A stretch of 12,018 nucleotides of DNA, taken from contig CAYVSA010000057.1 of NCBI GenBank assembly GCA_964454175.1, forward strand, positions 1 to 12,018, written 5' to 3'. Shown one piece after another: positions 16 through 12,018 of the stretch (within the stretch, counting starts at the first letter, position 1; every line of letters begins with the position of its first letter). The notes under the pieces are model-generated. The model saw only the letters and a list, made by a program, of their open reading frames with translations. It was not told the DNA's origin and did not search any database. The position numbers and the translations under genes are program-made. This DNA comes from an uncultured Pseudomonadota bacterium (GTDB lineage Bacteria > BMS3Abin14).

Positions 16-960
16 ATGAAAAAAGTCGGCTCCTTATTACGATCGCTTACACTATTTGTCGCAGCACTTGTGTTCCTCGTGCAAGGCAGCCTGACCATGG
101 CGTCAGCGAGCCAGGTCAGCAGCGGTAAGATAGTCGCTGTTGGCGGGGTGGAGCATGATTGGGGTTTCATTGACATAAAGGGCGGCAACCTTAAGCACAG
201 GTTCACACTTCTGAATACCGGGAAGCAGGACCTGATTCTCAAAGGCGGTTTCACATCGTGCGGATGCACCAAAGTCAAGTTCACCCTGGCTGACGGTTCG
301 GTTTCCCCGGAATTCGGTATGTCTCTGATGTCGGATTGGGTCGGAGTTGTCAGGCCGGGTGAAAGCTTTGACGCAACAGCAACATTTGATCCGCTTGCCC
401 ACGGTCCGGACGCCCTTGGTCCTGTTGTGAGGAAGGTTTATGTTGTCAGCAGCGCTCCTCCAGACGGCCGCATAACAACGATAATGCCTATCGTCAGGGA
501 CGGCAGTGTCACGACCATGCAGCTATCCGGAAATATTGTTTCTCCTGAGGAGTTCAGGAGCAGCGCCGGACCGAAAAACTACGAGTATGCCCTGGGGAAT
601 TTCAAATTCCGCGAGACGGAACACGACCTTGGCCGCCTGAAGCAGAGTCAGGGGATCGTCAAGTTCGAGTTCCCGTTCGTCTATGATGGAAAAGAAGCAG
701 CAACTGTCACCGGAACACCAACAAGCTGCGGGTGTACTACTGCCTCAGTGTCGGTGAAAACACTGAAACCGGGCCAGGAGGGCGTACTCATGGTTGAGTT
801 CGACCCGAATTTTCACGAAGAACCTGCTGGAAAGTTCTTCAGGACCATATCAATTCTCACAGATCCTCCCCAAAAAGAGCGGGCTGAAGTACGTGTCTGG
901 GCTGAGATCGATAAGGACCTGGGGCACGAAGCGTATAAACATAAAGAACATGACGATTAA
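16..960 (+). CDS. Exported protein with two DUF1573-like (Ig-like) domains
   Basis: 314 aa. GAGGTG RBS upstream. Signal peptide (MKK, hydrophobic core, ASA site). Two repeats of the DUF1573 pattern (D-x-G-x-I/L ... F ... TSCGCT ... PG ... FDP). His/acidic C-terminal tail. Confidence 0.8.
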   Translation: MKKVGSLLRSLTLFVAALVFLVQGSLTMASASQVSSGKIVAVGGVEHDWGFIDIKGGNLKHRFTLLNTGKQDLILKGGFTSCGCTKVKFTLADGSVSPEFGMSLMSDWVGVVRPGESFDATATFDPLAHGPDALGPVVRKVYVVSSAPPDGRITTIMPIVRDGSVTTMQLSGNIVSPEEFRSSAGPKNYEYALGNFKFRETEHDLGRLKQSQGIVKFEFPFVYDGKEAATVTGTPTSCGCTTASVSVKTLKPGQEGVLMVEFDPNFHEEPAGKFFRTISILTDPPQKERAEVRVWAEIDKDLGHEAYKHKEHDD

Positions 961-3226: not shown

Positions 3227-6049
3227 ATGAAGCGAAGAACATTTCTCAAGATAGGCGGAGCTGCACTGGCGGGTCTTCTGCCGCGAACGGGCAGGGCAGG
3301 TGCCAGGCCAGCCCAGGTCTCCCGTCCAACGGTCGTTTACGGTGAAGAAGTAGCCAGCCGATGCCCTCTCTGCTCCATGGGCTGCGGGACGATCTCGTTT
3401 CTGGACCCCTCGGGTCTTCTGAAAATAGAGGGGGACCCCGACTGCCCCATCGCCATGGGCAGTCTTTGCGCCAGGGGCGCTGCTTTTGTCAAGGTCAACG
3501 GGATATGGGAAAAACAAAAACCGTTGTACCGGCGTCCGGGCGCACTCGACTGGGAGGAGATCAGCCTGGATAGTGCCCTGGGCAGGGTCGCACGGCGCAT
3601 TAAGGATATGCGAGATGTAAGGATGAGGACGGCCAAAGGTAAGGGCAGCGAACGAAACCGCTTCGATTCCATGGCCCTTATCGCGGGGGGTAACCTTACC
3701 AATGAACAGGCCTACACAGCGGTCAAGCTCTTCCGTTCTCTGGGAGTAGTTCACATGGACACAACGGTCCGATCCTGCAGGGGGATGGCGGCTGCAGGCC
3801 TCATGGACACTCTGGGCCTTCCGGGCCCGACCCATTCAACTGACCAGGTCGCCAAAGCTGACGTAGTAGTCCTTTTGGGAACCAATCCCGGCCTCACATC
3901 ACCGGCCCTGGCGAGGTCATTGGAGGATGTGCGAAAACGAAGTGGAACAGTTATTATTCTCGACCCTCGAAGGACTGAAACAGCGCGGCCAGATGACATC
4001 TGGCTGAATGTTCGCCCCGGAAGTGACGCTGCCGTTCTTGGGGCCATGATATCCTGGGTGATGGAAAAGGGTAAGGTTCGCGTGGATGAACTCACCGGAT
4101 ACACGGACGCAAACTTCATGACAGTTACCGAGTTCGAAGGTGAATACGAGCGCTTCACATCAGGGAAGAAAAAAGGCGGACTCATTCGTGACAACACCCT
4201 CACTGAACCCTATTCAGTATATCAGCGTCTGAGGGCTCACTACTCGAGATATTCCCTCGAAAATGCATCGGCCATAGCCGGTATCGACAAGGCACTCCTG
4301 AGGAGGGCATGCCGACTGCTGGCCAGGACTGGAGAGCAGGAGTTTTCCGCCTGTTTCGTTCTTGGGTCGGGAGCAGTATCTGGTACCTCAGGGGCTGAGC
4401 TGACAAGGCAGGTGGCGATACTCCAGGCCCTCCTGGGTAATCTCAAGAAACGCGGCGGTGGAATAGTGATGGCTGCGGGAGCAGGCAACGCACAGGGAGT
4501 CTGCGATATGGGGCTGCTCTCGCCTTATCTCCCAGGTTATCTGCCCCTTCCCATTGTGGGCAGGGATCCACTGAAAAGCGCGGGGAGCAAAAGTGAAGGA
4601 CAAGCGATCCAGGCCCTTGCAAGGACATGGTTTGCAAGAGACGGTGGGGCTGAAGCGGCCTCCCTGCTGCCAGGAAGGTACAAGGGCGAAGACCTTACGG
4701 TTAACGGGATCATCCGCAATATAGCATCAGAGAAAATAAAGGCCCTGGTTGTCATCGGGGCCGAACCCTTTAACAGCCTGCCTGGCCGGAAGCGCCTTCT
4801 GGAGGCCATGGAAAAACTTGATCTCCTCGTAGTCATGGATATAGACCCTGGAAGCACCTGCAACTTCTGGAAGTCTGCAAAAAGGGGTTCACCCTCTGTT
4901 AAAACGGAGATTATGTTTATTCCTGTAGAGCCCCCAGCCCTACGCTTGGGAAGTGTTACCGATGGGTCCCGGCGAGTTCGCTCCCTGGCCTCAGCTCTGA
5001 AAATCCCGGAAGATGGGGCCTCACTCCTGGCAGTGCTGTCCGCACTGGGGCATGGGATTCAGACTATTTACAGACAGGAAAAGGGGTTTGCCGCAGGTCC
5101 TGTAGAGGCAATGATCTGGCCCTATAATATCACCGTGAAAAAAACCGCAGATGAGATAAACGGCGTCGTGGATCCATCTGAATCTACGCCTCGATTCCTG
5201 TCGCCTGGAAATAGCTGGCCCAGGGAGGCCCGCTGCGGAAACAGGCTTTACAGGGGCTGGATGACAGAGGAAGAATGGCTTCCCGAGCGCAGAGATAACT
5301 CCGATCCTTTTGGAAGGGGCTTTTTCGGCAGGTGGGGCTGGTTCTGGCCATGGGGGGTGCCTGATCCGTTCTCTCATGTCTATTTTGACAAGACAGACAG
5401 GTCTGTGCTCCTCCGCTGGGACGAACAGGGCAGCACAAGACTTAAGGCCAGGGATGTTTTGCCGCTCAGGCCCGGTTTACCCATCCTTTTCTGGAAGAAA
5501 GTGAGTAAAGGAACGGTTTTCCCTGAGCATTACGAGCCTTTTCACAGCCCCGTTCCTGATTTCTTCACGGGGGGAACATCTGATCCTTTCGTCAGGCTCA
5601 GGGATGGCGGCCTTAAAGAGTGGGACTATCTTTTCAGGAGACCGGAAAGGGTCCTAAGTAAATTTCCAGTGATCCTGACGTTTCGCCGTACCGGCAACAT
5701 CATGGGAAGCGGGGGCGTTCTTTCCAGGGTGGACTGGCTGGCCGAATTGGGTACGGTCAGGATCATGGAGATCAGTCCGGAATTTGCCGATGAACTGGGC
5801 GTCAAGGATGGGGCAAAGGTCAGCGTTACTTCTCCTGATGACAAGGCCGCCCTCACTGCGAGAGTTGCGGTGACCTCGAGGATAAGGGATTTTTCCTATG
5901 CTGGCGTGCGGCATCCTGTCGCATCCATGACTCTATTCGGTGGTGGGGACCTGTCTGCCAACACACTGATGACGGCTATCCAGAACACTTCCAACGGGGG
6001 CTTCGAAATGAAAGCATTCCTGGTGAGGGTTGAAAAGAAGGGAACGTGA
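3227..6049 (+). CDS. Divergent FdhA-like molybdopterin oxidoreductase (DMSO reductase family), Tat-exported, non-canonical active site
   Basis: 940 aa intact ORF. Tat motif KRRTFLK. [4Fe-4S] motif CPLCSMGC...LCARG. Collinear with the downstream FdhA (PLYRRPG, LDPR, FPEHYEP, EMKAFLV). Active site reads RSCR instead of RIUH. Confidence 0.85.
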   Translation: MKRRTFLKIGGAALAGLLPRTGRAGARPAQVSRPTVVYGEEVASRCPLCSMGCGTISFLDPSGLLKIEGDPDCPIAMGSLCARGAAFVKVNGIWEKQKPLYRRPGALDWEEISLDSALGRVARRIKDMRDVRMRTAKGKGSERNRFDSMALIAGGNLTNEQAYTAVKLFRSLGVVHMDTTVRSCRGMAAAGLMDTLGLPGPTHSTDQVAKADVVVLLGTNPGLTSPALARSLEDVRKRSGTVIILDPRRTETARPDDIWLNVRPGSDAAVLGAMISWVMEKGKVRVDELTGYTDANFMTVTEFEGEYERFTSGKKKGGLIRDNTLTEPYSVYQRLRAHYSRYSLENASAIAGIDKALLRRACRLLARTGEQEFSACFVLGSGAVSGTSGAELTRQVAILQALLGNLKKRGGGIVMAAGAGNAQGVCDMGLLSPYLPGYLPLPIVGRDPLKSAGSKSEGQAIQALARTWFARDGGAEAASLLPGRYKGEDLTVNGIIRNIASEKIKALVVIGAEPFNSLPGRKRLLEAMEKLDLLVVMDIDPGSTCNFWKSAKRGSPSVKTEIMFIPVEPPALRLGSVTDGSRRVRSLASALKIPEDGASLLAVLSALGHGIQTIYRQEKGFAAGPVEAMIWPYNITVKKTADEINGVVDPSESTPRFLSPGNSWPREARCGNRLYRGWMTEEEWLPERRDNSDPFGRGFFGRWGWFWPWGVPDPFSHVYFDKTDRSVLLRWDEQGSTRLKARDVLPLRPGLPILFWKKVSKGTVFPEHYEPFHSPVPDFFTGGTSDPFVRLRDGGLKEWDYLFRRPERVLSKFPVILTFRRTGNIMGSGGVLSRVDWLAELGTVRIMEISPEFADELGVKDGAKVSVTSPDDKAALTARVAVTSRIRDFSYAGVRHPVASMTLFGGGDLSANTLMTAIQNTSNGGFEMKAFLVRVEKKGT

Positions 6050-6160: not shown

Positions 6161-7048
6161 ATGAATAACTTTGAAAGCCGTGAAAAAACGTTCAGAGATG
6201 CTCTGTATTCCGGGGTAATGGATATTGAGGAGATGGAGGATGTCCTTGCACTCTACAGGGACCTTTATCCCGTAATATCAAAAAAGCTGGCAACGGCAGG
6301 AAAACAGAGGGAGCTGAGCTCCGAAGAGGCCAAAGTACGGCTCGGTGAGGGATTCACTCTCCTTGACCCCAAGGATCTGCTGCCAACCGAAAAGGGCATG
6401 GTCAAAAGGGCTGTGGCAGTGGCTGACGTTCTGGGAAAGCACTCTCAGGAAAATACGCCGTGGTCGGACGGCAGCCTTGACAGGCTTCTGGAGCCGGCAG
6501 TTTTGGCCAAACTGGTTTCCGAGTATCTGTCAGGAGGCGAAGAGACCCTGAAAAAGGAGCTGGCCAGAGTTTCTGTTGAGAAGGATCTTGGAGTATTCCT
6601 GGTCTTTAACGTTACGAAAGGAGTATTCCTTACAGCGGCAAGATCGCTCGGGGACGCCGACACCGAAAGCTGGGAGGGCGGCAGCTGCCCGGTTTGCGGA
6701 GGAGGACCCGCTGTGGCTTCGCTGGAGGAGGAGGGTGGCAAACGGTATCTCGTCTGCCACAGGTGCCATTGGAAATGGAGATATCCCAGGGTCCGCTGTC
6801 CCTTCTGCGACAGCACCGACCATGAGCACCTTGGCTACTTTACTGTTGAAGAAGAGCGGGAAAATGTGAGAGTGGATTTTTGCAGAAAATGCAGCGGATA
6901 TATCAAGACCTGGGACATGAGGGATGGCTCGGAAATTGTTCCGGAAGCCCAGGACCTTCTGACTGTGCGCTACGACCTTGCAGGAGAGGGAGAGGGTTTC
7001 ACCCGAAAGGCACCAAATCTTTTCGGGGTACGAGTGGGAACCGATTAA
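6161..7048 (+). CDS. fdhE: Formate dehydrogenase accessory protein FdhE
   Basis: 295 aa, GGGAG RBS. Four CxxC motifs in the FdhE arrangement: CPVCG, 'RYLVCHRC', 'RVRCPFC' and 'CRKCSGYIKT'. Adjacent to the fdh operon. Confidence 0.9.
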   Translation: MNNFESREKTFRDALYSGVMDIEEMEDVLALYRDLYPVISKKLATAGKQRELSSEEAKVRLGEGFTLLDPKDLLPTEKGMVKRAVAVADVLGKHSQENTPWSDGSLDRLLEPAVLAKLVSEYLSGGEETLKKELARVSVEKDLGVFLVFNVTKGVFLTAARSLGDADTESWEGGSCPVCGGGPAVASLEEEGGKRYLVCHRCHWKWRYPRVRCPFCDSTDHEHLGYFTVEEERENVRVDFCRKCSGYIKTWDMRDGSEIVPEAQDLLTVRYDLAGEGEGFTRKAPNLFGVRVGTD

Positions 7049-7222: not shown

Positions 7223-7260
7223 ATTAGATAGCACGGTATTACCGTGCTTGACAGTCTAGT

Positions 7261-7353
7261 CGACTTCCGATCCCGTTTCGTCCCTCCGGGATGTTCGGGA
7301 CGATAGGGTTTGGCGAGCAATTGCCGAGCCTGCCTATCTTGCAAAGGAAGCCG
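7261..7353 (+). ncRNA. Moco/Wco (Tuco)-like riboswitch aptamer candidate lacking P3
   Basis: P1 CUUCC(GA) 7264-7270 pairs with (AAA)GGAAG 7343-7350. P2 is 7271-7300. AGGG leads into a 10-bp P4 (7307-7316/7321-7330) capped by a GCAA (GNRA) loop. The 3' segment GCCU-GCCUAUCUUGC-AAAGGA parallels the Moco motif GCCU-CCCGUAUUUGG-AAAGGA as recalled. Located directly upstream of a Mo/W enzyme. Confidence 0.65.
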
Positions 7354-7383
7354 TGACTTGCTCATGGCTTCCTTTATTTATTT
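7343..7383 (+). terminator. Intrinsic terminator in the fdh leader (attenuator)
   Basis: 14-bp stem AAAGGAAGCCGTGA / TCATGGCTTCCTTT (one G-U pair), 5-nt loop, running into TTTATTTATTT about 100 nt before the fdhA start. Confidence 0.75.
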
Positions 7384-7478: not shown

Positions 7479-10400
7479 ATGGTGAAGGCTAGGATGAACG
7501 TAACCAGGAGAGATTTCTTAAAGATCTCTGGTGCCACAGTCTCAGGTGCGGCGCTGGGTGGTCTGGGTCTCAAGGGTACGGCCGCTGCTGCCGGAAGGTC
7601 AGGCAACGTTGCGGTAAAGTACTCCAGGGAGACCAATTCCATCTGTCCGTTCTGCGCCGTGGGATGCGGCATGGTCGTTCACTCCCACAACAACAAGGTG
7701 GTCAATATGGAGGGTGATCCGGACCATCCCATTAACATGGGTACCCTCTGTTCAAAGGCCCAGGCTCTCAGGCAGGTCTCTGAGAACCCGTGGCGGATCA
7801 CCAGTCCCCTTTACCGCGCGCCGAGAAGCAGCGAGTGGAAAGAGGTCAGTTGGGATTGGGCGTACAACGAGATCGCCAAAAGGATAAAGAAGAGCCGCGA
7901 TGCGGGCTTCACGAAAGTGAACTCCAGCGGTCAGGTAGTTAACCGAAACGACGGGATCGCATCCGTCGGTTCCGCCGCTCTGGATAATGAAGAGTGCTAC
8001 ATCCTCCAGAAGTGGCTTCGCGCCCTCGGCCTGGTGTATATCGAGCACCAGGCGCGCATATGACACAGCGCAACTGTAGCGGCTCTGGCAGAGTCGTTTG
8101 GGCGCGGCGCAATGACAAACCACTGGGTAGACATCCGTAATTCGGATGTGATCCTGGTGTCGGGCAGCAACGCTGCCGAGAATCATCCCATATCATTCAA
8201 GTGGGTGAAAAAGGCCATGGATAACGGGGCCAGGCTGCTTTCCGTGGACCCGAGGTTCACGAGGACTTCCTCCAAGGCTGATGTGTATGCACCTATGAGG
8301 TCCGGAACGGATATCGCCTTCCTCGGCGGTATGATCAAGTACATCCTGGACAACGAGCTGTATCACAAGGATTACGTGAGGCTCTACACAAACGGGCCAT
8401 TTATCCTCAACAGCAGTTTCAAGATGCCGGGAGACCTCGATGGTGTGTTTTCCGGATACGATCCCAAGAAGCGCAGCTACAACAAGAAGGCGTGGGCTTT
8501 TTCTGCGGACAGCAAAGGTGTAGTCAGAAAAGACCCGGACATGAAGGACCCCATGTGCGTCCTTCAGCTTCTCAGAAAGCACTTTTCAAGATATACGCTG
8601 GACAAGGTGTCGGCTATCACTGGTACGCCAAAGGACAAGCTGCTTGCTGTCTACAAGGAGTATGCGTCCACAGGCAAGGCCAACCGTACCGGTACGATCA
8701 TGTATGCCATGGGCTGGACCCAGCACACCGTGGGAACCCAGAATATTCGAACGATGGCAATGATCCAGCTGCTGCTGGGCAACATCGGGATGTCCGGAGG
8801 AGGGGTCAATGCCCTCAGGGGAGAGTCCAATGTTCAGGGCTCCACCGACCACTGCCTCCTGTTCCACATCCTGCCCGGCTATCTGAAGACTCCCAGGGCT
8901 TCCAACAGCACCTTCGCCAAATACAACGAGAAGTGGACACCAAAGACGAAAGAGCCGTATTCAGCAAACTGGTGGGGCAACTATCCCAAGTACAGCGCCA
9001 GCCTGATCCGGGCTCACTTCGGCACTGGTGCCGCCCTGTCAACTCAGTACCAGTGGCTGCCCAAGCTGGATGACGGTCAGAACGCTTCCTGGCTCATGCT
9101 GTTTGACGAGATGAGCAAGGGCAAGTTCACCGGATTCTTTGCATGGGGCCAGAACCCTGCCTGCTCCGGTTCCAACGCGGGAAAGGTTCGAAACGCCCTG
9201 GGAAAGCTGGACTGGATGGTCAACGTCAACCTGTTCGACAACGAGACGGGCTCCTTCTGGCGCGGACCTGGAGTAAATCCCTCGGAGATCAAGACCGAGG
9301 TGTTTTTACTTCCATGCGCCATGTCCTTCGAAAAGGAAGGCAGCATTACGAACAGCGGACGATGGGGTCAGTGGCGCTGGGCCGCAGTCAACGGACCCGC
9401 ACCGTCGGATTCGGAAATAATCAACGATCTCCAGTTCAGGGTCAGGAAGCTCTATGAGGAGCAGGGCGGCGTTTACCCCGACCCGATCCTCAACCTGGCG
9501 TGGGACTACGGTGCCAAGGGCCCAGACGGCAAAGTCAAGCGAGTGGATACGCACCTGATAGCCAAGGAGGTCAACGGATATTTCCTGGCCGACAAGGTTG
9601 TGAAAGGCAAACAGTTCAAGAAGGGCGACCTTGTGCCGTCCTTTGCCTTCCTTCAGGACGACGGATCCACATCCTCGGGTAACTGGCTGTATTGCCAGTC
9701 TTACAATGGCGATGGGAATAACATGGCCCGCAGGAGCACTTCCGATCCTTCCGGCATCGGCCTCTTTCCCAAGTGGTCATGGTGCTGGCCCGTCAACAGG
9801 AGGATCATCTACAATCGTGCCAGCGTGGACGAGTACGGTAAGCCCTGGGCTCCTCACAAGCCTGTCGTTTACTGGAACGGGAAGAAGTGGATCGGCGATG
9901 TTCCCGATGGCGGATGGCCTCCGCTTCGCAAGGCTGACGGCACGTGGAACGAGAAGACCAAGCTGGCCTACATCATGAAGCCTCACGGAGTCGGTCACCT
10001 CTTTGGCCCCGGCAGGGCGGAAGGTCCGTTCCCGGAGCACTACGAGCCTCTCGAGTGCCCCATCCAGACAAATCTCATGAACAAGCAGAGGATCAACCCG
10101 GTGGCCAAGATCTTCACGGGCAAAGAGGATGTGTTCCTCACCTGCGATGACCGGTATCCAATAGTGGCCACCACGTACCGCGTCACTGAACACTGGCAGA
10201 CCGGAGTTCTTACGCGATGGCTGCCCTGGCAGGCCGAGATGCAGCCGGCAAACTTCTGCGAGATCAGCAGAGAGCTTGCAAAAGAAAAGGGCATCAAGAA
10301 CGGGGATAAGGTAGTCGTTTCCTCGGCCAGAAACAAAGTCGATGCCATCGCGGTCGTCACAATGCGGTTCAAACCCTTCAAGATCGCGGGCAACACGGTG

Positions 10401-10586
10401 CATCAGGTCGGACTTCCGTGGTGCTTCGGTTGGGCAACAACCGAAAACGGGGTGAAGGCAAACAACATACCTTACAGCAATCCGACATTCGGTGATTCGT
10501 CGAACCTGCTGACTCCGTCGGTCGGTGACGCAAACACAATGATTCCAGAGACGAAGGCCTTTATGGTCAACGTCGTGAAAGCCTAG
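7479..10586 (+). CDS. fdnG: Selenocysteine-containing formate dehydrogenase alpha subunit (FdnG/FdhA type), 1035 aa, Sec195
   Basis: Track ORFs 7479-8063 and 8112-10586 are in frame and joined by TGA at 8061-8063: EHQARI-U-HSATVAALAESFGRGAMTNHW. Tat motif TRRDFLK; CPFCAVGC...LCSK; ALRGESNVQG; TTYRVTEHWQTG; PETKAF. AGGAG RBS; alternative start ATG 7494. Confidence 0.96.
8064..8098 (+). promoter_or_regulatory. Bacterial SECIS element
   Basis: Hairpin AGCGGCUCU-GGC-AGAGUCGUU (8078-8098) with a G-containing apical loop about 23 nt after the in-frame UGA. Confidence 0.8.
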
Positions 10587-10602: not shown

Positions 10603-11436
10603 GTGGCTGATAAAATGATCGTTGTTGATACTTCAAGGTGTACTGCCTGCCGCGGCTGCCAGACAGCCTGCAAGCAGTGGAATAACCTATCAGCGGTTCG
10701 GACATCGAACCGCGGCGGCTACGAGAACCCCCCTGACCTCGGGTACAATACGTACCTGAAGATCCGCTTTAATGAGATCGAGTCAGGCGGAGAGGTCAAG
10801 TGGCTGTTCGGTCAGGCGAGGTGTATGCACTGCTCTGACGCAGGATGCATGAAAGCGTGTCCGGTTCCCGGCGCCATCACCCGCGACTCAAACGGGGCTG
10901 TGGTTATTAATCAGAACCTGTGCACAGGCTGCAAGTACTGTGTGTTCGGGTGCCCCTTCGAGATACCCAGGTATGATATGGGGAATGCGGAAGGCTACGG
11001 CAAGGACAAGGCCTTCAAGTGCACCATGTGTGCAGACAGGCAGGGACTGGGAATGTCTCCGGCCTGCACCAAGACCTGTCCCACGGGCGCCCTGTCTTTC
11101 ACCGACAGGTCAAAGCTGCCCGGTATTGCAGCTGGCGCCAAGAAGGCGGGAATGACCGTCTACGACGGCGGTGCTCTTCAGACCAATGTTGTCTTTCTCC
11201 TCGAGGATAAGGCTTCTGCTTATGGTCTGCCCGCCAAACCGTCCATTCCGACACCAACCTACCTGTGGCGCACAGTCATGAAGCCGGTTGGCGTGGCGGC
11301 ATTCGTCCTCGGGATCCTGGCAGCGATAACGCACCTGGTGACCGTTGGCCCCAAGGAAGTGGACGAAGGTGATGACGCCCCCGGCTCATCGCCATATCAG
11401 GGAGGAGGTGGCAGCGATGTCTCATCATCTAATTAA
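10603..11436 (+). CDS. fdnH: Formate dehydrogenase beta (iron-sulfur) subunit with C-terminal membrane anchor
   Basis: 277 aa, GTG start, GGGGGTG RBS. Four Cys clusters (CTACRGCQTAC, CMHCSDAGCMKAC, CTGCKYCVFGC, CTMC...PACTKTC). TM helix 'PVGVAAFVLGILAAITHLVTVGP'. Confidence 0.93.
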   Translation: MADKMIVVDTSRCTACRGCQTACKQWNNLSAVRTSNRGGYENPPDLGYNTYLKIRFNEIESGGEVKWLFGQARCMHCSDAGCMKACPVPGAITRDSNGAVVINQNLCTGCKYCVFGCPFEIPRYDMGNAEGYGKDKAFKCTMCADRQGLGMSPACTKTCPTGALSFTDRSKLPGIAAGAKKAGMTVYDGGALQTNVVFLLEDKASAYGLPAKPSIPTPTYLWRTVMKPVGVAAFVLGILAAITHLVTVGPKEVDEGDDAPGSSPYQGGGGSDVSSSN

Positions 11437-12018
11437 GCGCTTCACCTCCAGTGAGAGGTGTGTGCACTGGATAAACATGCTGGCTTTCATAGTCCTGGCC
11501 CTTACGGGTCTTGGTCTTTACAGCCATTCGTTCTTCGGTCTGACCTCCATCTTCGGCGGTGTGGACATGTCCAGGACCATCCACCATTTTACTGGCCTGG
11601 TGTTCATTGTCACTACACTGCTTATTTTCTTCCAGTGGTTGAAGGACTACTCGGCTGCTGCCGACGACTCCCTTGGAACTGTGATAAGCAGTTACATGGA
11701 TCACGACTTCAAGGGCCCTGCATCCGGCAAGCTTAACGCCGGCCAGAAGCTTCTTGGCTACACTGTGTTTTTATTCGGTGTTGTCATGGCGCTCACCGGT
11801 CTTGCGATGTGGTATCCGACAGTCCTTGGCCGAGGTATGCAGCAGTGGATGTATTTCCTGCACAACTTCGTGTTCACCCTGTTTATGCTGCTTATGGTGC
11901 TCCACGTCTACCTTGGTACAGCCGGCAACCCCGGAACATGGCGAGCCATGTCGAAGGGGACGGTTACCAAGGCTTGGGCGAAGAAGCATCATGGGGCGTG
12001 GGATGGTGAAGAAGCGTA
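11417..12018 (+). CDS. fdnI: Formate dehydrogenase gamma subunit (cytochrome b); stop codon probably cut by the window edge
   Basis: Not in the ORF track. GGAGGAGG RBS, ATG 11417: MSHHLIKRFTSSERCVHWINMLAFIVLALTG...RTIHHFTG...GKLNAGQK...FLHNF...VLHVYL...AMSKGTVTKAWAKKHHGAW. Four hydrophobic segments with heme His ligands. 200 codons, then 'TA' at the window end. Overlaps fdnH by 20 nt. Confidence 0.93.
   Translation, partial: MSHHLIKRFTSSERCVHWINMLAFIVLALTGLGLYSHSFFGLTSIFGGVDMSRTIHHFTGLVFIVTTLLIFFQWLKDYSAAADDSLGTVISSYMDHDFKGPASGKLNAGQKLLGYTVFLFGVVMALTGLAMWYPTVLGRGMQQWMYFLHNFVFTLFMLLMVLHVYLGTAGNPGTWRAMSKGTVTKAWAKKHHGAWDGEEA

Follow-up and report, generated by a model that had tools for sequence, protein, structure and literature searches.

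We analysed a 12,018-nucleotide stretch of DNA from an uncultured bacterium (GTDB lineage Bacteria; BMS3Abin14; contig CAYVSA010000057.1 of GenBank assembly GCA_964454175.1), hereafter the window, which carries eight genes, all on the plus strand. One of them, here called fdhA' (3227..6049, +), encodes a 940-amino-acid paralogue of the FdnG-type molybdopterin oxidoreductases with an apparently dead formate dehydrogenase (FDH) site. It is followed, after 111 bp, by an fdhE-like accessory gene (6161..7048, +), a molybdenum/tungsten cofactor (Moco/Tuco) riboswitch aptamer (7253..7365, +) and the operon of a complete selenocysteine (Sec)-containing FDH, which consists of fdhA (7479..10586, +), fdhB (10603..11436, +) and fdhC (11345..12016, +). 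Two tandem GntR/FCD regulator genes (1529-2281 and 2278-2955, +) are conserved upstream of fdhA'. A preliminary description of the window, made from its letters, had noted that fdhA' has no beta-subunit gene of its own and that fdhE comes next; both points hold, the product of the next gene being an FdhE homologue.

The fdhA' frame begins with ATG and runs for 940 codons with no internal stop, as the preliminary description had stated. The database gene call (P0003; 890 amino acids, 95% coverage) starts 50 codons further downstream and drops the twin-arginine translocation (Tat) signal. The motif RRTFLK, which lies before the start of the database call, is conserved in relatives and supports the ATG at 3227. 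Over its full length FdhA' is 27% identical to the FdhA of the window (BLASTP, E 3e-103), and its best relatives of solved structure are FdnG (1kqf; E 1.7e-79) and the tungsten FDHs (W-FDHs). It scores 384.9 bits on TIGR01553, under the cut-off of 814.2, while the adjoining FdhA scores 1386.5.

The BLASTP alignment and the codons confirm the substitutions that the preliminary description had seen. Codons TGC AGG (C184-R185; 3776..3781, +) stand opposite Sec195-His196 of FdhA, and codon GCG (A417; 4475..4477, +) opposite the catalytic R447, which is R446 in FdnG; the sequence around A417 reads MAAGAGNAQG, as against ALRGESNVQG around R447. In reference FDHs these positions hardly vary: the Cys or Sec ligand is present in 31 of 31, the His after it in 30 of 31 and the catalytic Arg in all 31.

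A word-indexed search of 5.8 billion proteins gave 147 matches at E ≤0.001 among the 8000 candidates that were scored. Besides its own entry, these comprised 31 clusters at 46-81% identity to FdhA', and the next match among the same 8000 candidates was only 28% identical. A similar gap appeared when 1.84 billion representatives, clustered at 50% identity, were searched with a profile of the family: the sole family representative scored 1504 bits and the next protein 526. A pattern scan of one genome per species (185,579 species) returned nine loci with family members, and a search of the ESM Atlas with FdhA' returned generic formate dehydrogenase clusters only. Two further loci (L010 and L011) were rejected as family members; their open reading frames (ORFs) of 918 and 904 amino acids are 27-30% identical to FdhA', and the match begins some 220-250 residues in. 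FdhA' is thus a discrete family, confined, in the collections searched, to one small uncultured phylum. That phylum is represented here by 16 genomes from one family and nine genera; all 16 encode the Sec-FdhA, and 14 of them carry an intact fdhA' of 926-940 codons.

We counted the states of the former catalytic site over 27 aligned rows (the window protein and 26 clusters), leaving out five shorter or fragmentary clusters (P0029, P0031-P0034) and the shorter gene call P0003 of the window itself. The 27 clusters and the 14 intact genomes overlap and share kinship, so that the counts are not those of independent events. The catalytic Arg is absent from all 27 rows, position 417 being Ala in 10, Thr in 7, Ser in 5 and Val in 5. 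At position 184, where FDHs have Sec or Cys, we found Ser in 24 rows, Gly in 2 and Cys only in the window protein; at position 185, 18 rows keep the His of FDHs, 8 have Arg and 1 has Tyr. Over the 14 intact genomes, codon 184 is AGC or AGT in nine, GGN in four and TGC in the window, states that are one base change apart, and in the family tree the GGN carriers occupy three distinct branches (G003; G009 and G010; G015). The residues flanking these positions, by contrast with the positions themselves, are invariant or nearly so (D178, R182, G186, G410-G412, N421-A-Q-G and C426-D-M-G).

Two readings of the site do not survive this comparison. One is that the Cys has been retained from an FDH; in the family, Cys184 is confined to a single genome and derives from an ancestral Ser codon (AGC to TGC), and it is probably a neutral or nearly neutral variant rather than a retained ligand. 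The other, put forward in the preliminary description, is that the catalytic Arg may have moved to the His position. Arg185 occurs with Ser or Gly at 184 in seven other clusters and, since it accompanies these residues, it does not reflect a coupled rewiring of the site. We also considered whether the window protein alone might have regained a Cys-type FDH activity or a related one, with Arg185 replacing the lost catalytic Arg. The uniqueness of the Cys at the ligand position (1 of 27 clusters, 1 of 14 genomes) and the adjoining Arg would suit this idea, which we nevertheless regard as very improbable: the change from AGC is a single base on a long terminal branch, the closest relative, at 81% identity, has Ser, Arg185 is common to the seven other clusters just mentioned, and the window protein does not depart from its family at position 417 or at any of the other 71 FDH-conserved columns that have changed (see below). 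The view that FdhA' is not a normal FDH is borne out by the TIGR01553 score, the missing catalytic Arg and the loss of the Sec/Cys-His pair. On these grounds we infer that FdhA' is not a formate dehydrogenase and that formate oxidation has been lost.

The sequence features for export and for iron-sulfur binding are kept. The N-terminal MKRRTFLK (Tat signal region, residues 1-34; 3227..3328, +, ending at an inferred cleavage site) matches the Tat consensus, and the Arg pair is found in all 26 family rows that have an N-terminus; on the Pfam TAT_signal model FdhA' misses an E of 0.001, whereas FdhA passes. The motif of the [4Fe-4S] cluster FS0 (C46-x2-C49-x3-C53...C81, then R83; 3362..3475, +) is invariant in 27 of 27 rows, so that the preliminary description was right to list the Tat signal and all four Cys as kept. 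We next examined the 150 columns that are conserved at 90% or more in 31 FdnG-type FDHs with catalytic residues. The FdhA' family keeps 78 of them, including the FS0 Cys, N220, P226, D246-P247-R248, R263-G265-D267, R821, R885, N912 and the PEHYEP motif. Other columns are fixed in the family to a different residue (K83R, G199P, N203H, R251E, T426C, Q585R, D600L and P902T). Because many of the changed columns are invariant but different, the alignment points to functional divergence on an intact scaffold, not to decay. Among these, the residue after the fourth Cys is Arg83 in 27 of 27 family rows and Lys in 31 of 31 FDHs. Enzymes of the DmsA and NarG types likewise have Arg at this place, and there it connects FS0 with the pterin. 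The motifs kept suggest that FdhA' probably retains a bis-pterin cofactor.

Structure prediction is consistent with an intact scaffold. An AlphaFold 2 (AF2) model built on a 104-row alignment reached a mean predicted local distance difference test score (pLDDT) of 90.1 and a predicted template modelling score (pTM) of 0.93, with low pLDDT at residues 20-35; it supersedes an earlier model on the 27-row alignment (pLDDT 61.8), which was unusable. In Foldseek the model matched the 22 listed chains of the W-FDHs of D. vulgaris and D. gigas (6sdr-type and 1h0h) and of E. coli FdnG (1kqf) at a query TM-score (TMq) of 0.83-0.87 (about 0.85). As modelled, FdhA' has the FdnG fold.

We also weighed a decaying pseudogene derived from a duplicated fdhA. 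Such an origin might explain why FdhA' evolves faster than FdhA and why the gene is deleted in one genome (G006) and truncated in another (G005). We estimated the ratio of nonsynonymous to synonymous substitution rates (dN/dS; Nei-Gojobori, NG86) over the matched segments of the three closest genome pairs. For FdhA' it was 0.142 (G009-G010), 0.163 (G012-G014) and 0.151 (G001-G002), and two further pairs gave 0.153 (G012-G013) and 0.190 (G013-G014). In the same order, the three closest pairs gave 0.107, 0.121 and 0.087 for FdhA, 0.171, 0.162 and 0.150 for FdhB, and 0.243, no value and 0.193 for FdhE. The frame is intact in 14 of 16 genomes, and the 27-row family alignment has more than 200 invariant columns at 46-81% identity. 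fdhA' is thus under purifying selection and is not decaying, and the neutral decay of homologues that would have spoken against the preliminary description was not seen. A pseudogene is the least probable of the explanations that we weighed. The protein nevertheless changes quickly: in pairwise comparisons among 11 genomes, identity averages 54% for FdhA', 84% for FdhA, 49% for FdhE, 75% for FdhB and 68% for FdhC.

The phylogeny also speaks against a pseudogene left by duplication of fdhA. In a 51-row tree (a quick IQ-TREE run, LG+G4) the family has a support of 100 and lies inside a clade of dead-site proteins only (Shimodaira-Hasegawa-like approximate likelihood-ratio test, SH-aLRT, 96). This clade nests within the FdnG-type FDHs, a placement for which the program warns of long branches meeting and hence of a possible long-branch artefact. 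Forcing the family to join the FdhA of the window costs 68 log-likelihood units and is rejected by the approximately unbiased (AU) test (p 0.017, for a group that was named after the tree had been seen). Loss of the catalytic residues is not peculiar to the family. We aligned 29 mostly full-length proteins from the 150 best profile matches, a sample that is biased because gene callers split Sec-FDHs at TGA and such enzymes are under-represented among full-length matches. Six of them have Sec/Cys-His and Arg, one has Cys-Cys and Arg, and in 22 the set is missing.

Many proteins of FdnG length with an Arg-Arg signal, from several phyla (P0124-P0193), lack Sec/Cys-His, mostly lack the Arg as well, and are labelled formate dehydrogenase. 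One of them, from Spirochaetota (P0127; L044 8669-13745), is only 47-48% identical to the Sec-FDHs of its own phylum; its gene is followed by those for its own four-cluster subunit and for a 433-amino-acid protein with no Pfam match, and there is no fdhE nearby. The metagenomic proteins of this kind resemble FdhA' in length, Arg-Arg signal and FS0 Cys and share one clade with it; they differ in being only 21-32% identical to it. None of the cluster members of 20 dead-site representatives was from Dehalococcoidia, although few of those members are named (Spirochaetota, Planctomycetota).

The setting of fdhA' is conserved. The order gntR-gntR-fdhA'-fdhE-(riboswitch)-fdhA(Sec)-fdhB-fdhC was found in all seven loci of adequate length, with gaps of -17 to 256 bp between fdhA' and fdhE and of 282 to 876 bp between fdhE and fdhA; genes outside this unit are not conserved among the loci. 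The two genomes without an intact fdhA' have lost it in different ways. In G006 (L021 6397-8813) the deletion is clean and leaves gntR-gntR-fdhE-fdhABC, with 160 bp between the second gntR and fdhE. In G005 (L020 5377-7267) a 3' remnant (residues 514-937) persists with its frame still open; where the N-terminal half of fdhA' and the gntR pair would be, there are unrelated genes for Hpt-domain and DUF4388 proteins. Since the gene is deleted or truncated in these two genomes, we infer that FdhA' is auxiliary to the FDH and not required for it. The two GntR/FCD proteins, whose genes overlap by 4 nucleotides and which are about 40% identical to each other, probably regulate the cluster; both are kept in G006 despite the loss of fdhA'.

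As to the other parts of the cluster, the fdhE-like product has four CxxC motifs and matches PF24860/PF24859; on TIGR01562 it scores 72 bits, below the cut-off of 187.65. The riboswitch aptamer scores 40 bits on RF01055, whose gathering score is 36 (E 9e-07); it lies between fdhE and fdhA, about 110 nucleotides upstream of the latter, and has no P3 hairpin. Of 12 related loci, 10 have the aptamer at the corresponding position when the gathering score is applied; the other two, L024 and L033, have no aptamer at that score. The P3-less class of Moco/Tuco RNAs is tied to tungsten-cofactor genes by Regulski et al. (PMC2408646). In the window a terminator-like hairpin with a T-run (7343..7375, +) has a 5' arm that overlaps the 3' strand of aptamer P1, an arrangement that would make an ON switch, with fdhABC transcribed only when the cofactor is present. 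Downstream of it, fdhA encodes Sec at TGA 8061-8063 (U195). FdhB is an FdnH-type four-cluster subunit with a C-terminal transmembrane helix and no signal peptide, its first cluster Cys being residue 13. FdhC is a cytochrome b subunit (TIGR01583, 132.9 bits against 115.85) whose gene runs off the window and whose true start is probably later than 11345. We also noted a SECIS_3-like match at 8058-8116, which scores 30.5 bits, far under its gathering score of 63; it starts at the TGA region of fdhA and fits Sec insertion.

The proximity of fdhA' and fdhE raises the question of whether FdhA' acts with FdhE as a maturation or assembly factor, that is, as a scaffold, decoy or escort in cofactor or Sec biogenesis or in the Tat export of FdhAB. 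Comparable paralogue-type factors serve other enzymes, HupK in the case of [NiFe] hydrogenase and NifEN in that of nitrogenase. The two genes are adjacent on the same strand, the stretch that separates them in the window contains no terminator-like site, and both are upstream of the riboswitch that precedes fdhABC; FdhA' changes at a rate like that of FdhE (54% versus 49% mean identity), and it is dispensable in G006 and G005. The strict Tat signal, however, points to export and not to a cytoplasmic scaffold, and FdhE persists where fdhA' is deleted. In addition, the genome has an ordinary FdhD gene at another place; with FdhD present (275.6 bits), we rejected the idea that FdhA' substitutes for a missing one. 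We know of no paralogue-scaffold for any molybdenum or tungsten bis-pterin guanine dinucleotide (Mo/W-bisPGD) enzyme, and literature searches found none. We therefore regard an assembly role as improbable.

We consider that FdhA' probably has a function different from that of an FDH, and the interpretation that we tentatively favour is that of an alpha-type subunit without catalysis, with a redox or structural role, comparable with OmeA of Dehalococcoides, that carries FS0 and may dock on FdhB after or during export. FdhA' would fold with FS0 inside it, probably together with a bis-pterin cofactor, and would be exported by the Tat system; the exported iron-sulfur protein would then pass electrons to or from a partner, for which the FdhB (and FdhC) of the operon is the likeliest candidate. 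Electron passing by an exported protein is suggested because the Tat signal, FS0 and the invariant basic residue behind FS0 are all conserved. FdhB, having no signal peptide, needs an alpha-type partner for its export. We prefer a silent subunit to a new enzyme or an assembly factor because the three formerly catalytic positions vary, the protein evolves fast and the gene has been lost twice.

We used complex prediction to look at the proposed partnership. FdhA' (residues 36-800) with FdhB (residues 1-212) scored 0.59 (runs at 0.22, 0.59 and 0.69), and the best of three controls scored 0.00; contact agreement in the runs was at least 92% and the pLDDT of the partner at least 85. The mark for such scores is passed by 116 of 157 solved complexes and by 2 of 215 mismatched pairs, and the passes at a score of 0.60 or less comprise 18 of the 157 solved complexes and both of the passing mismatches. 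Complexes like FdnG-FdnH are already solved, and the pass may reflect memory or likeness and not binding. With this reservation, the prediction is consistent with a docking of FdhA' on FdhB, which may occur.

A number of observations weigh against a silent subunit that works with FdhB. The complex prediction is a weak pass obtained on a shortened chain. In using FdhB, FdhA' would compete with FdhA, with no evident benefit, and the genes concerned lie on different sides of the cofactor riboswitch, fdhA' upstream and fdhB and fdhC downstream of it. The pace of change of FdhA' is like that of the accessory FdhE and unlike that of the structural subunits. As for the site and the cofactor, Ser at 184 is conserved in 89% of the rows, the family-specific invariants around the old active site (R182, H203, Q207, N421-A-Q-G and C426-D-M-G) would suit a new active site equally, and the 72 of 150 FDH-conserved columns that have changed include possible cofactor-binding polar residues (H225, E572, D600, E824 and R833); the Pfam Molydop_binding score of FdhA' (25.4) is just below the cut-off of 26.8. 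Finally, no RNA run carrying fdhA' was found among the sequencing runs listed, and two DNA runs matched only 0.06-0.07 of the sampled words.

Several of these points bear on a further explanation, namely that FdhA' is a neofunctionalised Mo/W-bisPGD enzyme that retains FS0, an electron-conducting Arg and the pterins on the FdnG scaffold, has a pocket enlarged because Sec and Arg are gone, acts on another periplasmic substrate, shares FdhB-FdhC with FdhA and needs no fixed protein ligand to the metal. The last two features would not be without precedent, as the metal of arsenite oxidase has no known protein ligand and the two alpha subunits YnfE and YnfF of E. coli share one beta-gamma pair. 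The family-specific invariants that ring the old site (R182, H203, Q207, C426, E251 and R585) argue for such an enzyme, as do the invariant FS0 and R83, the major pterin-binding motifs, the Tat signal, the dN/dS of 0.14-0.16 in the three closest pairs and the weak docking pass on FdhB (0.59 against 0.00), to which the caveat of likeness applies. Positions 184 and 417, moreover, hold small residues only, as if space were being kept free. Yet none of the three first-shell positions is constant, and Ser and Gly have been exchanged independently at least three times, which is unusual for a working active site; FdhA' diverges about three times faster than FdhA; of 16 genomes, two have lost or truncated it, with no replacement seen in the locus; and the cluster contains no conserved substrate-related gene such as a transporter or a further enzyme. 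We judge a new enzyme to be unlikely, if a serious competitor. Its more specific form, an FdnG-derived enzyme whose metal needs no fixed protein ligand, Ser, Gly and Cys being interchangeable, and whose pocket, opened as Sec and Arg were lost, takes some other periplasmic substrate, and which uses FdhB-FdhC and belongs to a multi-phylum dead-site clade annotated throughout as formate dehydrogenase, appears somewhat less likely still.

The silent-subunit interpretation finds its closest counterpart in OmeA (DET0187/CbdbA195), described as an FdnG-like large subunit with Ser at the Sec/Cys site and no FDH activity, in which the role of the pterin-binding site is not understood (PMC5736913, PMC6005880, PMC10772276). 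As far as that description goes, and compared by description only, FdhA' resembles OmeA in being FdnG-like and Tat-type. At the Sec/Cys position 24 of the 27 clusters have Ser, as OmeA does, and the protein of the window has Cys. OmeA differs, by the same accounts, in having its own NrfD-type anchor, OmeB, and in working with HupX, the Hup hydrogenase and RdhA. FdhA', in contrast, lacks a dedicated beta or anchor gene and lies between the gntR pair and fdhE, before a complete Sec-FDH operon; a search of the genome for a reductive dehalogenase, made without a positive control, gave no match. QrcB and ActB are cofactor-less homologues of catalytic subunits that are non-catalytic and sit inside respiratory complexes (PMC6303296). 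They share with FdhA', as proposed here, the descent from catalytic subunits without catalysis; they differ in that their complexes also contain a cytochrome c, a four-cluster protein and an NrfD-type subunit, while FdhA' keeps FS0 and most pterin motifs. On the QrcB model NF041783 FdhA' scores 32 bits against a cut-off of 440, and a qrcACD or act gene context was not found around it. Compared with FdnG/FdhA proper (TIGR01553; 1KQF, 6SDR, 1H0H), FdhA' has the same fold, length, Tat signal, FS0 Cys and FPEHYEP and WxWP motifs; it differs in lying under the TIGR01553 cut-off, in lacking Sec/Cys-His and the catalytic Arg, and in having Arg for Lys after the fourth Cys. FdhA' is thus set apart from OmeA, QrcB and ActB by the absence of its own beta or anchor gene, the linkage to fdhE and a Sec-FDH, the combination of FS0 with most pterin motifs, and the restriction to one phylum. 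A full-text literature search, with most subscription journals outside its reach, found no prior description of the family or of this arrangement.

Other genes of the window and of the genome assemblies are mentioned for completeness. The first gene of the window (16-960, +) encodes a DUF1573/HYDIN-type Ig-like protein that matches the OS_HP2 (seleno)protein family weakly, scoring 55 bits where the cut-off is 100; a homologue lies upstream in locus L001 (58% identity) and is absent from the other loci. In the genome of the window (G000), contigs C107 (L046 1774-4347) and C36 (L047 1-2392) each carry a module with a multihaem cytochrome c, a four-cluster protein and an NrfD-type membrane protein; neither module includes a molybdopterin subunit or is linked to fdh, and one of the four-cluster proteins matches a Tat-signal model. 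We rejected these NrfD-type modules as partners of FdhA', multihaem cytochromes c preceding both, at least one of the four-cluster proteins having a Tat signal itself, and neither module being linked to fdhA'. Contig C1 of the same genome (L015 826-3630; L016 874-3549) encodes two cytoplasmic NuoG/FdhA-type proteins of 934 and 891 amino acids, about 6 kb apart, of which one scores 661.9 bits against the TIGR01591 cut-off of 666.25 and the other 496.1 against the NuoG cut-off of 470.05.

Members of the family appear in the source databases as 'formate dehydrogenase major subunit' or 'formate dehydrogenase-O major subunit precursor'. Annotation accordingly suggests two periplasmic FDHs per genome, of which only one can plausibly oxidise formate. 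Since many other metagenomic FdnG-like proteins also lack the catalytic residues, the dead-site phenomenon is probably wider than the FdhA' family. Kept for the life of the phylum beside fdhE and a riboswitch-controlled Sec-FDH, FdhA' offers a test case for the role of dead-site molybdoenzyme subunits, a question that OmeA raises too, and points to a possible route by which new accessory functions or new chemistry may arise on the FdnG scaffold.

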